From Ignavibacteriota bacterium (lineage in GTDB: Bacteria > Bacteroidota > Ignavibacteria > UBA10030 > CAVZMI01): a stretch of DNA of 64,000 bases. Positions 44,752 to 57,964 of this stretch are shown in pieces. A program made the position numbers and the translations under genes. Each line of letters starts with the position of its first letter. Within the stretch, counting starts at the first letter, position 1. The DNA is taken from the NCBI GenBank assembly GCA_963776275.1, contig CAVZMI010000023.1, positions 64,001 through 128,000 on the forward strand, read 5' to 3'. The notes beneath the pieces were generated by a model. That model saw nothing but the letters and a program-made list of their open reading frames with translations, was not told the origin of the DNA and did not search any database.

Positions 44752-46641
44752 ATGAATATTCCTGAGGAGAATATTGACATTCATATCCGCATTACAAAGG
44801 GGGATTTTTCACTCAAAGAAAAACTCGAAATGCTTCCCACCGACCCCGGCGTGTATCTTCATAAAAACAGCGAAGGAAAGGTGTTATATGTAGGTAAAGC
44901 CAAGAATCTGCGGAATCGTGTCAGACAATATTTCCAGAAATCGCGTCCACAAATTCCCCGTATTGAGCGGCTCATATCACAGATCTCTGACATCGAACTT
45001 CTTATCGCCGATTCCGAAGTCGAAGCATTAATCCTGGAAGCAAACCTCATAAAAAAATATTCACCGCGCTATAATGTCTCATTGAAAGATGACCGGAGCT
45101 ATCCCTATATCGTCATCACGAATGAACCGTTTCCCCGGGTCTTCGTGACCAGACGAATTATCAAGGATGGATCGAAATATTTCGGACCGTACACCGATGT
45201 GACGAGCGTACGATCGGCTCTTAAAACAATACATGAGATTTTCAAGATTCGGAGCTGCAATTACTACATTGATGAAGAAGTCGTAGCGCGGAAGAAAATC
45301 CGTGTGTGCCTTGATTACCATATTAAAAAATGCGACGGTCCCTGTGAAGGTCTAATCAGCCGTCAGAAGTATTGTGAGATGATCGGTGGTGTTGAACAAT
45401 TATTGAAAGGTAAGATTAACGATCTTGTAGCGACACTCGAATTCGAAATGCAACAACATTCTGAACGGCTTGAATTCGAAGCTGCCGGAGAGTTGCGCGA
45501 CAAGATCAATGCGCTCAGGGTTTATACCGAAAAGCAAAGTGTTGTCGATCTTGAACGCAGCGAACGCGATGTTGTGGCATATGCGATCGAAAAGGACGAT
45601 GCATGCGGGGTAATCTTTAAAATCAGGGATGGAAAGGTCATCGGGCGTCAGCATTTTTATATGAGCAATGTTGAGGGAAGGGATGCGGAGGAAATTCTGG
45701 AAAGTCTAATTGAAAGGTATTACCTCGAGGCGGAAGATATTCCGGTGGAGATTCTTCTTGCGGATCCTATCAAGGATACTGACACGCTTTCAAAATGGCT
45801 TTCGGAAAAGTCACACCAGAAGGTTTCGATAGGAATTCCGTCGAGTGACGACCAAAAAAAGCTTATTAAATTCTGTCAGACGAATGCACGGTATCTCCTG
45901 GAAGAACTTAAAGTGCAGAAATTGAAGTACGAGGAATTAATTCCTAAGAGTGTCGCCGCTCTTCAGTATGATCTCCGACTTCCCAAAGCCCCGCGGCGGA
46001 TTGAATGCTTCGATATTTCAAATATTCAGGGGAGCGATACAGTCGCATCAATGGTGGTTTTCATGGACGGAAAGTCAAGGAAGTCGGGTTATAGGAAATT
46101 CAAGATAAAGACTGTCGAAGGCCCTAACGATTTTGCCAGTATGCAGGAAGTTATTGAACGCCGGTATCAGCGGCTCCTTGAGGAACAGGGGAATTTTCCG
46201 GATCTCATCGTTGTTGACGGAGGAAAAGGGCAGCTCTCAGGTGCTGTAGAAGTGCTTCATCGGCTGGGCGTTACGGGGCAGCCGATCATCGGACTGGCGA
46301 AACGGCTTGAGGAAATCTTTCTTCCTGGTGAGAGCGAGCCGCTTCAACTGCCGAAAACTTCGTCCGCGTTGCGACTCCTCCAGCGGCTGCGCGATGAAGC
46401 GCACAGGTTTGCAATCACTTATCACAGACAGCTCAGATCGCGCCGTACTCTCCAGACCGAACTGGACCTGATCAAGGGGATAGGTAAAAAACGGGCAAAG
46501 GAGCTTCTCGAGACTTTTGGCTCAGTCCAAGGGGTAAAGTTTGCCACGCATGAACAGCATGTCGAAGTTGTCGGTGAAAAAGTGGCACAGAAGATCGCAG
46601 AATATTTTTATGTTGATGAAGAAATATCGGAATCACAATAA
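44752..46641 (+). CDS. uvrC: Excinuclease ABC subunit C
   Basis: PGVY..LYVGKAKNLRNRV, RIECFDISN, DGGKGQL, RDEAHRFA, HhH. Confidence 0.98.
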   Translation: MNIPEENIDIHIRITKGDFSLKEKLEMLPTDPGVYLHKNSEGKVLYVGKAKNLRNRVRQYFQKSRPQIPRIERLISQISDIELLIADSEVEALILEANLIKKYSPRYNVSLKDDRSYPYIVITNEPFPRVFVTRRIIKDGSKYFGPYTDVTSVRSALKTIHEIFKIRSCNYYIDEEVVARKKIRVCLDYHIKKCDGPCEGLISRQKYCEMIGGVEQLLKGKINDLVATLEFEMQQHSERLEFEAAGELRDKINALRVYTEKQSVVDLERSERDVVAYAIEKDDACGVIFKIRDGKVIGRQHFYMSNVEGRDAEEILESLIERYYLEAEDIPVEILLADPIKDTDTLSKWLSEKSHQKVSIGIPSSDDQKKLIKFCQTNARYLLEELKVQKLKYEELIPKSVAALQYDLRLPKAPRRIECFDISNIQGSDTVASMVVFMDGKSRKSGYRKFKIKTVEGPNDFASMQEVIERRYQRLLEEQGNFPDLIVVDGGKGQLSGAVEVLHRLGVTGQPIIGLAKRLEEIFLPGESEPLQLPKTSSALRLLQRLRDEAHRFAITYHRQLRSRRTLQTELDLIKGIGKKRAKELLETFGSVQGVKFATHEQHVEVVGEKVAQKIAEYFYVDEEISESQ

Positions 46642-56655: not shown

Positions 56656-56789
56656 ATACGGGATTAGTTTATAAAGCCGGGGATGTAGTCCCAATCCAAC
56701 ATAACTTACCGAATGAGGTTAGTGGGAAATATTTTCCCTTTCGTTTTTTAAACAGGTACTTTTAGGACGACAATAGAGAAATAAAGAAT

Positions 56790-56818
56790 TTGCCTTAAAA
56801 ATTATAAATTTGTATATT
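56790..56818 (+). promoter_or_regulatory. Sigma70-type promoter for the tRNA locus
   Basis: TTGCCT-17 bp-TATATT. Confidence 0.6.
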
Positions 56819-56833
56819 TTATCGAGTTCATTC

Positions 56834-57047
56834 GGGCGCTTAGTCCCAATCCGACATACTTTACCGAAGGTAAAGTATAGGTCGGATTGAGGCCCCGACT
56901 TTTTTTAGTCGGGGCTCAATCATTGCCCGAAATGTCGAAAAAGCATTTATTTGGGCGCTTAGCTCAGTCCCGTCCCGACATACTTTACTGAAGGTAAAGT
57001 ATGTCGGGACGAGGATCCCGCCCACCGAAGGTGGGGCGGGACTGGTT
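56834..57047 (+). pseudogene. Two tRNA-Val 5' fragments interrupted by palindromic insertions
   Basis: gggcgcttag[56844-56914]ctcaa and gggcgcttagctcag[56968-57041]ctggtt match the first ~21 nt of the intact tRNA. Confidence 0.75.
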
Positions 57048-57093
57048 GGCAATCGATACAATTAATACAGTTCAGCAATTTGGAATGCTTTTT

Positions 57094-57168
57094 GGGCGCT
57101 TAGCTCAGCTGGTTCAGAGCGTACGCCTCACACGCGTAAGGTCGCCGGTTCGATCCCAGCAGCGCCCA
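57094..57168 (+). tRNA. tRNA-Val (CAC)
   Basis: Acceptor stem GGGCGCT/AGCGCCC, D arm gctc..gagc, anticodon stem TACGC/GCGTA with loop CT-CAC-AC, T loop TTCGATC (one C-A mismatch in the T stem); CCA not encoded. Confidence 0.93.
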
Positions 57169-57870
57169 CTTGTAAATGGTGAATTGTGAGTTGTGAATAG
57201 TGAATGGTTTTGGCTATTTCGATAGCCAGGTGGCCGAGCCTGTGGTGCCCTAAAGGACGACTTCGTCGAGCGAACCCTGAACGTAGTGAAGGGTGAGTCG
57301 AACCACTTGTGGTGAGCTTGTCGAACCATTCTTAACAGCCACCCTTCGATCCGCCTCCGGCGGACTCAGGGCAAGCCCTTCGATGAACTCAGGGCTAGTA
57401 TCGAGGCCACTTGTAAATGGTGAATTGTGAGTTGTGAATAGTGAATGGTTTTGGCTATTTCGATAGCCAGGTGGCCGAGTTAAATTGCCATACAAACAGC
57501 CATATCGAGGCCACTTGTAAATGGTGAATTGTGAGTTGTGAGTGGTGAATGGTTTTGGCTATTTCGATAGCCAGGTGGCCGAGCCTGTGGTGCCCTAAAG
57601 GACGACTTCGTCGAGCGAACCCTGAACGTAGTGAAGGGTGAGTCGAACCACTTGTGGTGAGCTTGTCGAACCATTCTTAACAGCCACCCTTCGATCCGCC
57701 TCCGGCGGACTCAGGGCCAGCCCTTCGATCCGCCTCCGGCGGACTCAGGGCCAGCCCTTCGATCCGCCTCCGGCGGACTCAGGGCCAGCCCTTCGATCCG
57801 CCTCCGGCGGACTCAGGGCTAGTATCGAGGCCACTTGTAAATGGTGAATTGTGAGTTGTGAATGGTGAAT
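57166..57870 (+). repeat. Array of 73-bp direct repeats (57166, 57407, 57511, partial 57831) separated by nested REP-like palindromes; includes 4 x 34-bp tandem at 57687-57820
   Basis: Unit ccacttgtaaatggtgaattgtgagttgtgaatagtgaatggttttggctatttcgatagccaggtggccgag; tandem cccttcgatccgcctccggcggactcagggccag. Confidence 0.9.
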
Positions 57871-57964
57871 GATAAATTTGCTATTCACTTTTCTATGTAC
57901 GTCTTCAGACTAAATCAGACCATTTAGGCAAGATATTAATAAACACCTATCAATAGTTCCGCCA

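Follow-up and report, generated by a model that had tools for sequence, protein, structure and literature searches.

Why does the tRNA-Val(CAC) gene of an Ignavibacteriota bacterium, the only one of its kind found in the assembly, stand behind a row of broken copies of its own 5' end, each of them cut by a hairpin? The locus lies in a window of 64,000 nucleotides (nt) from contig CAVZMI010000023.1 (positions 64,001 to 128,000 of the forward strand, assembly GCA_963776275.1), and coordinates given without a contig are positions in this window. The source genome of the window is referred to as G000 and its sister genome as G001; all other genomes mentioned belong to the same order. The tRNA genes were called by ARAGORN and Rfam. 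We conclude that positions 56679-57093 are probably a stack of dead remnants, left by a selfish double-hairpin (DH) element that invaded the locus repeatedly and is now without a nuclease gene, and that the outermost stub is best read as the oldest one.

Stubs and double hairpins before tRNA-Val(CAC)

Upstream of the intact gene, which is the single tRNA gene of the window, three units (0, A and B) can be distinguished, each comprising a stub of a tRNA gene and an insert. The features of the locus are:

56679..56688, forward strand: stub of unit 0, 10 nt resembling the 5' end of tRNA-Ala (1/10 mismatch); one change in G001
56689..56727, forward strand: insert of unit 0, the decayed left part of a DH element
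56834..56843, forward strand: stub of unit A (GGGCGCTTAG), an exact copy of tRNA-Val(CAC) positions 1-10
56844..56914, forward strand: DH element of unit A (71 nt), hairpin 1 at 56844-56892 and hairpin 2 at 56893-56914
56915..56919, forward strand: CTCAA, ambiguous between tRNA positions 11-15 with one change and the DH element's own 3' end
56920..56952, forward strand: spacer 1, homologous to the leader directly 5' of the tRNA in G001 (79% over 56905-56967)
56953..56967, forward strand: stub of unit B (GGGCGCTTAGCTCAG), an exact copy of tRNA-Val(CAC) positions 1-15 (E 2.7e-5)
56968..57041, forward strand: DH element of unit B (74 nt), hairpin 1 at 56968-57015 and hairpin 2 at 57016-57041; not in G001
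57042..57047, forward strand: CTGGTT, tRNA positions 16-21, resuming after insert B
57048..57093, forward strand: spacer 2, the 46-nt leader of the intact gene
57094..57169, forward strand: intact tRNA-Val(CAC) gene (Rfam 60.6 bits)
57158..57903, forward strand: downstream block, four copies of the tRNA 3' tip and trailer (CCACTTGTAAATGG...)

The initial annotation, made from the sequence of the window, had described tRNA 5' fragments cut by related hairpins upstream of the intact tRNA-Val, and this description holds. The stubs of units A and B are exact copies, whereas the chance expectation for an exact tRNA 10-mer within 500 nt upstream is approximately 0.0005; the distances between the 5' repeats are 119 and 141 nt. 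Both inserts begin with TCCC directly after an AG and have the stem ccgacatacttta..taaagtat..gtcgg in common. Folded as single-stranded DNA, each of them forms two adjacent hairpins (insert A: -21.7 kcal/mol, z -7.65; insert B: -34.5 kcal/mol, z -11.5; 0/200 shuffles as good in both cases), and the stems of unit B are perfect. Concerning known RNA families, the tRNA alone reaches the Rfam gathering threshold at this locus; two further matches are sub-threshold chance matches (E 0.1-0.2). A promoter-like TAAATTTG box (identified by eye) is located upstream of the units, which lie between this box and the tRNA and are probably co-transcribed with it.

A third, more decayed case, with a 5' end like that of a different tRNA, had also been proposed at 56679-56727. 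Unit 0 is real but weak. Its stub (GGGGATGTAG) differs in 1/10 positions from the start of tRNA-Ala(TGC/CGC) of G000 (by eye), and its insert corresponds to the left hairpin part of unit A (66% over 41 nt, with about 27 of the first 30 insert bases alike by eye); it no longer folds significantly (z -0.48; 64/200 shuffles as good). The bases after each insert had also been listed. CTGGTT after insert B continues the tRNA, but the 'ctcaa' after insert A is ambiguous: 4/5 bases match tRNA positions 11-15, G001 has CTTGA there, and another hairpin family in G000 ends in the same five bases at its 3' side. The idea that CTCAG or CTCAA after a hairpin is always derived from a tRNA was weakened in the same way, as GGACTCAA(C) ends another hairpin family at tRNA-Met and tRNA-Asn. 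A tRNA intron was considered for insert B and rejected: the insert does not sit in an otherwise complete tRNA gene, its removal leaves tRNA positions 1-21 followed by unrelated sequence, so that excision yields no full tRNA, and ARAGORN and Rfam call the downstream gene only.

The comparison of strains that had been suggested with the initial annotation distinguishes the units. G001 is syntenic upstream and contains units 0 and A; it lacks unit B, and it has no unit at tRNA-Val(TAC). In G001, the spacer that lies 5' of unit B in G000 stands directly before the tRNA. The two genomes differ here by 141 nt, which consist of the DH element of unit B, CTGGTT, the 46-nt new leader and a second copy of positions 1-15; the difference may be due either to a gain in G000 or to a deletion between direct repeats in G001. 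The arms of unit A show a double compensatory change between the two genomes (aatccgac/gtcggatt vs aatttgac/gtcaaatt) and its loops differ by nested insertions. The G001-type allele, with units 0 and A and diverging at 56860, is also found in contigs of two public runs (X1 and X3). The order in which the outermost stub would be the oldest is based on these differences: G001 shares unit 0, which is decayed, and unit A, whereas unit B, with its perfect stems, occurs in G000 only.

A family of double hairpins across the order

The consensus of the DH element is TCCC-NNN-YYGRC...GYCRR-N'N'N'-GAGGA, followed by a second hairpin of the form TCCC...GGGA. A search pattern built from the copies seen (TCCC NNN YYGRC, 12-42 nt, GYCRR NNN GAGGA) has 125 matches in 52/151 genomes of the order, with 0-9 copies per genome, vs 9 matches for the reversed pattern. 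Unit B is an exact match (G000:C23:120968-121015); unit A and the unit at tRNA-Val(TAC) show one or two departures from it. Complementarity extends to all three unconstrained arm pairs in 30/36 distinct copies, which represent five triplet types, and the six non-complementary exceptions are matches inside genes that have no palindrome.

We inspected 70 loci, 30 of them chosen by the search tool and 40 picked from the match list blind to context; these contain 88 matches, of which 82 are palindromic. A tRNA gene is found within 300 nt of 48/82 palindromic copies (36/64 loci), compared with 0/6 non-palindromic matches. The 9 nt located 5' of the DH element lie within the tRNA of the locus on the same strand for 22/82 copies, the insertion points being after positions 10, 15, 16, 23 and 38/39 in Arg, Met, Ala, Pro, His, Gly and Val genes; for 12/82 copies these 9 nt are from the opposite strand of the tRNA, mostly from T loops. 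The dinucleotide directly 5' of the element is AG in 48/82 copies, in line with the insertion after AG that had been noticed at the window locus, and AA in 19/82. The tRNA continues for 4-6 nt after the element in 12/23 direct cases, followed by a spacer of 10-77 nt and the next copy. Among the other direct cases, one array has three units with a continuation of 11 nt, single cases have 24 and 29 nt, and the script gave no length for six. The DH elements are an order-wide, strongly tRNA-associated, non-exclusive family. The view of a mobile palindrome is supported by its presence in different tRNA genes of different genomes (Val, Gly, Met, Ala, His, Arg and Pro) and by its polymorphism between sister genomes. 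The proposed target, the 5' or D-arm sequence of tRNA genes, captures the strong tRNA link but proved too narrow: anticodon loops, T loops, the loops of other hairpins, a composite repeat unrelated to tRNA and the starts of Ser/Thr kinase genes are also struck.

The same pattern is found elsewhere in G000, whose assembly has 46 tRNA genes according to ARAGORN. An exact copy of the gene's own first 10 nt is present within 500 nt upstream of 8/46 tRNA genes. With other tRNA genes masked, an exact piece of the gene itself of at least 10 nt is found within 700 nt of 18/46 tRNA genes on the same strand vs 1/46 on the reverse strand; such a common word occurs in 136/1968 comparisons of non-cognate tRNA pairs. 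The pieces are colinear with their tRNA and parted by short hairpins, mostly of the form TCC...GGA. A script listed 30 junctions of fragment, insert and fragment, again mostly TCC...GGA, at least two of which (Leu-cag and Gln-ttg) look like chance. TCC...GGA hairpins with 7-nt arms number 252 in G000 vs 44 in a shuffled genome, and 25 vs 4.5 expected within 700 nt of tRNA genes. Insertion at random AG sites without a tRNA preference, which had been named as the alternative outcome of a genome-wide search, disagrees with these counts, although short TCC...GGA hairpins do occur widely away from tRNA genes.

Looking at single loci of G000, one tRNA-Met copy is of full length but has at least four inserts, a tandem array of five 86-nt units lies in front of tRNA-Gly(GCC), and tRNA-Leu(TAA) is nested between positions 1-72 and 73-90 of an older copy, in an insert whose ends are 13-nt inverted repeats. 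At tRNA-Val(TAC), hairpin 1 of the window stands behind a stub of that gene's own sequence (GGGCGGTTAG) and not behind the GGGCGCTTAG of Val-CAC. The number of units at this gene varies: G001 has none, G000 has one and a third genome (G002) has two, located after positions 10 and 15 as in the window. G002 also contains three tandem copies of tRNA-Gly(TCC) with hairpin 1 (91% identical) after position 38/39. In four other genomes of the order, the tRNA-Val gene that corresponds to the one in the window has no unit in front of it. The 3' parts of tRNA genes are also duplicated at many other loci, which blurs the contrast drawn in the initial annotation with islands that duplicate the 3' end.

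A second DH family is specific for T loops (GGTTC | TCCGC..ATTATG..GGTGAGGCGGA TCCGCC..GGCGGA | AAATCC, the bars marking the ends of the insert). It splits copies of tRNA-Thr(CGT), tRNA-Pro(GGG) and tRNA-Ser(GGA) (G000:C5:59013-59650, C21:75300-75420 and C37:20640-20810).

Two arrangements bear on the mechanism. In one genome (G026), an old Val copy of the G000 sequence type is split after position 15 by hairpin 1 and a second hairpin. The loop of the second hairpin holds a leader and an intact tRNA-Val(CAC) gene of a different sequence type, and after this hairpin the old Val copy resumes and runs on for 26 nt up to the next insert. Also, Ser/Thr kinase genes in two genomes (G060 and G145) are arranged as at tRNA loci, with a stub, a DH element and the intact gene. 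The kinase stub has a ribosome-binding site, a start codon and approximately 17 codons up to LGE; then follow the DH element, a new ribosome-binding site and the intact gene, from which the stub differs at many positions. The stubs encode MIG.TIS.Y.ILEKLGE and are found at three loci: L070 (G060:C6:138830-139700) at 351-560, and L071 (G145:C15) at 350-700 and L072 (G145:C15) at 356-560, both on the reverse strand. One kinase locus has two stacked stubs of differing sequence.

In the composite repeat, hairpin 1 sits atop a conserved non-tRNA stem (gccgcctaacgg..gctaa | hairpins | gctgc..). It is found in intergenic regions beside small open reading frames (ORFs) in several genomes (G000:C4:235-287 and G000:C30:4507-4559; loci L021, L022, L030, L041, L042, L044, L053 and L079), and it had no Rfam match in the four loci searched.

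Proposed mechanism, candidate enzyme and rival explanations

According to the reading that we favour, the DH element would insert directly after AG in a loop of a tRNA gene, at the window locus after position 10 and after position 15. Each struck copy would then be superseded by a fresh copy with its own short leader directly downstream, and the old 5' stub, the DH element and 5-6 more tRNA bases would be shifted upstream. With stubs pushed upstream by each new copy, the age of the stubs would increase outwards, and the copy in use at present would be the gene at 57094. The initial annotation had proposed that the tRNA is regenerated downstream each time, leaving a chronological record; the order of the stubs fits such a time series, but regeneration is read from the architecture rather than from a demonstrated mechanism. 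The likeliest enzyme would be a small single-domain GIY-YIG nuclease from the other hairpin-split tRNA loci of G000, acting in trans. By analogy with the Ssn nucleases discussed below, its binding site would be the hairpin in single-stranded DNA and its cut would fall a few bases off; another tRNA copy, from a sister or from incoming DNA, would serve as the template for repair. The DH element may move by itself or together with a nuclease, and stub formation and copy replacement would be one event.

Both a Y1 (HUH) transposase and a GIY-YIG nuclease had been suggested as the cognate enzyme, and the GIY-YIG genes turned out to be better associated with the split tRNA loci. The GIY-YIG domain (PF01541) has 15 matches in G000, namely UvrC and 14 others. 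Seven of these 14 genes are within 400 nt of a called tRNA gene, and two more adjoin hairpin-bearing tRNA-Met copies that ARAGORN does not call; loci with a GIY-YIG ORF beside a tRNA target are found on contigs C10, C20, C21 and C37, the neighbours on C37 and C20 including tRNA-Ser and tRNA-Pro. A strict TCC[CG] hairpin is present within 300 nt of 5/14 GIY-YIG genes (approximately 0.06 expected per gene) vs 0/9 Y1 genes. The local GIY-YIG ORFs encode single-domain proteins of 87-100 amino acids. Their best sequence matches in the PDB are the UPF0213 proteins 1ywl and 1zg2, and SLX1 (E approximately 3e-3); in NCBIfam, a model of group I intron endonucleases is the sole one to match, weakly and in the N-terminal part, with scores far short of the cut-off. 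A search for related loci with one of these proteins yielded two relatives only.

Two GIY-YIG loci deserve a description of their own. At G000:C10:40586-42000, the initiator tRNA-Met is followed by four 349-nt units, each with a small GIY-YIG ORF. The end of each ORF runs into a tRNA-Met copy, the GTAG of the tRNA providing the stop codon. In these copies the D-loop bases 13-18 are swapped for a 15-nt hairpin, and in the last copy a hairpin replaces the T loop as well. Outside the window (G000:C23:274580-275540), a 319-codon ORF ends approximately 120 nt before the stub of tRNA-Val(TAC) and approximately 230 nt before the gene. The N-terminal part of its product looks like a helix-turn-helix (by eye), a GIY-YIG match of 22 bits, at the Pfam cut-off, lies in the C-terminal part, and the ORF is missing from the matching place in G001.

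An unlikely alternative that needs neither targeting nor regeneration is that spontaneous tandem or slipped duplications produced the 5' copies and that generic GC-rich hairpins piled up in them later. TCC...GGA hairpins are indeed common elsewhere (the 252 with 7-nt arms include the 25 near tRNA genes), tandem stub arrays do exist (Gly-GCC five times, Gly-TCC of G002 three times) and the duplicated units often take in a few leader bases. Such uncoupled events do not account for the stub ending where the hairpin starts in nearly every case, with only 4-6 nt after the hairpin in 12/23, nor for one DH family marking the breaks in seven tRNA species and in kinase genes. Also, the intact gene inside the hairpin loop of G026 is unlike the old copy in sequence, and kinase stub and intact gene diverge in the manner of orthologues. 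Movement of REP-like hairpins by a Y1 transposase of the IS200/IS605-RAYT kind, inserting 3' of AG in single-stranded DNA, seems improbable to us. IS200/IS605 elements insert directly 3' of a fixed short word without target duplication, as the DH elements appear to do after AG, and Y1_Tnp (PF01797) has 9 matches in G000. GTAG-tagged REP families are on record (PMC3733652). Against this, TCC[CG] hairpins are missing from the 300 nt around all nine Y1 genes, unrelated hairpins of other kinds flank the five that were inspected, and the split tRNA loci harbour GIY-YIG genes instead of Y1 genes.

The stubs and hairpins might also be a selected 5' leader of the tRNA transcript that serves as a processing signal, an RNase P decoy or a stabiliser. 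The compensatory arm changes between G000 and G001 and across the order would fit a selected structure, as would the position of the units between the promoter-like box and the tRNA. A leader under selection is nevertheless very improbable: the units are missing from the same tRNA-Val in four other genomes, G001 does without unit B and without the Val-TAC unit, and the same hairpin is found in other tRNA genes in either orientation and in stubs of protein-coding genes. The hairpins match no Rfam family, and the one RNA run examined (X17) covers the tRNA only, a weak observation as it is based on contigs. Partial tRNA duplications are a classic mark of integrative elements, and the 5' pieces could be attL/attR-type duplications of lost tyrosine-integrase elements. 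This explanation is close to refuted, as the repeats are 119 and 141 nt apart and leave no room for an island, the neighbouring ORFs in the window are an amino-acid permease and a protein without a Pfam family, no integrase was found, and the layout recurs at many tRNA genes with hairpins alone between the repeats.

Several findings weigh against serial invasion by a DH element. There is no nuclease gene at the window locus, the sole PF01541 match in the window being UvrC (44848-45075), and 9/14 GIY-YIG genes of G000 have no strict TCC hairpin nearby. The hairpins are not confined to tRNA genes: 227/252 TCC...GGA hairpins with 7-nt arms are not near such genes, 34/82 DH copies have no called tRNA within 300 nt, and at least ten DH copies (by eye) sit in the composite repeat. 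A search downstream for the 3' parts that the old Val copies lack gave only TTCGATCC, an 8-nt T-loop word (E 0.9) that is repeated in 34-nt tandem units and is too little to be claimed as an old Val 3' part. The absence of unit B from G001 could result from a deletion between the 15-nt direct repeats rather than from a gain in G000, and the public runs searched contain the G001-type allele only and not the exact allele of G000. The degenerate SRM motif of Ssn is not enriched in G000 (6 matches vs 15, 9 and 14 in three shuffles) and has no match at the window locus. Finally, the whole argument is one of comparative anatomy.

Known systems and the surroundings of the gene

Integrase-mediated insertion into tRNA genes usually duplicates the 3' end and involves multi-kilobase islands and a tyrosine integrase. 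As in the events proposed here, the displaced part of the tRNA gene is supplied by the incoming DNA, so that the gene remains functional, and a partial copy persists; the differences are the 5' stubs, the hairpin at the junction and the lack of an integrase. Free-standing GIY-YIG homing endonucleases, such as SegB in the tRNA cluster of phage T4, cut a conserved target that is repaired from the allele of the carrier. The likeness is a GIY-YIG gene lodged among or against tRNA genes, which in G000 applies to loci other than that of the window, where there is no nuclease ORF. Seg proteins also have a DNA-binding domain, and their system is not known to involve signature hairpins or a layout of stub and replacement. 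The double-hairpin elements and GC clusters of fungal mitochondria are short mobile elements of two hairpins in intergenic regions and genes; they are organellar and not centred on tRNA genes, and we liken them to the DH element by description, not by sequence. Work on Allomyces reportedly describes a mobile endonuclease ORF that carries a replacement gene end.

The DH family has several traits in common with the REP/REPIN-RAYT systems, for which GTAG- and CGTC-tagged REPs are recorded (PMC3733652, PMC3333891): both consist of short palindromes with a conserved end word, both are dispersed and can form doublets, and a dedicated nuclease presumably moves both in trans. REPs are extragenic and are not known to be tied to tRNA genes or partial gene copies, whereas DH copies are few per genome (0-9 for the search pattern) and sit inside gene remnants, and the Y1 genes of G000 are flanked by other hairpins.

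The closest published system that we found is Ssn (Chenal et al. 2025, PMC11893778). According to that paper, Ssn proteins are single-domain GIY-YIG nucleases that act on single-stranded DNA, where they bind the NTS/SRM hairpin repeat and cut at a distance of a few bases, and its authors note that NTS-ssnA-NTS is arranged like an insertion sequence. Both systems link small (approximately 90-100 amino acids) single-domain GIY-YIG proteins with short hairpin repeats. Hairpin 2 and the NTS have the same core palindrome (TCCCGC...GCGGGA), and here it is followed by a C, the base that is called the most crucial for binding in the Ssn work. A cut a few bases off the hairpin would fit the 5-6-nt offset seen here. 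The systems differ in the 5' flank, which is AG here and not CGTCA, and in the arrangement, as double hairpins here split genes and are accompanied by a replacement copy; the word 'tRNA' occurs 0 times in the main text of the Ssn paper.

We tentatively suggest, as a possibility of less than even weight, that the DH element and a small GIY-YIG nuclease make up an undescribed class of homing-like mobile elements. Such an element would target loops of conserved genes (the D, anticodon and T loops of tRNA genes and the glycine-loop coding start of Ser/Thr kinase genes), cut approximately six bases from its own hairpin and spread with a replacement gene part. Essential single-copy genes would then become stacks of dated stubs, and foreign tRNA alleles would be carried between lineages. 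Our literature search, with most subscription journals outside its coverage, found no description of hairpin-split tRNA stubs with replacement copies or with GIY-YIG genes in bacteria. New here are the consensus for the family across the order, the AG rule, the continuation of 5-6 nt, the foreign tRNA in the hairpin loop of G026 and the kinase-gene cases.

If the reading as serial invasion holds, invasion and rebuilding of tRNA genes by a tiny hairpin element is routine throughout an order of Bacteroidota-like bacteria. This would account for the abundance of odd tRNA-like fragments that confuse annotation, as well as the replacement of resident tRNA alleles by foreign ones. It would also provide a natural role and target sites for the large uncharacterised family of single-domain GIY-YIG proteins, of which only Ssn has been studied. 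The fixed offset of 5-6 nt between hairpin and break is a direct, testable prediction of the cut site of the nuclease, and the stub stacks could act as a relative clock of invasions.

Concerning the region downstream of the gene, the block at 57158-57903 consists of four copies of the last four bases of the tRNA with approximately 60 nt of trailer. The copies are kept apart by nested GGTGGCCGAG...CGAGGCCAC hairpins and by the 34-nt tandem units, which combine TTCGATCC with a TCCGCC hairpin. G001, whose synteny with G000 stops at 57203, lacks the block, and pieces of it are found on 8 other contigs. It may belong to the same process as the upstream units. The repeats at 57205-57410 were considered as a flank of GIY-YIG genes elsewhere; there are 24 short matches, only 2 of which lie within 260 nt of a GIY-YIG ORF, and the idea was dropped. 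A resemblance to the GIY-YIG flanks on contigs C22 and C26 is seen by eye only.

The leader of the intact gene resembles that of another Val gene: the last approximately 19 nt of spacer 2 agree with the leader of tRNA-Val(TAC) in G001 at 16/19 positions (TCAGCAATTT.GA.TG.TT). This hints either that the newest copy brought a Val-type leader from elsewhere or that the two leaders have a promoter box in common. In the T stem of the intact tRNA-Val(CAC) (57144-57161), both G000 and G001 have a C-A mismatch (GCCGG/CCAGC), while the stem is perfect in other genomes of the order (ACTGG/CCAGT or GCTGG/CCAGC).

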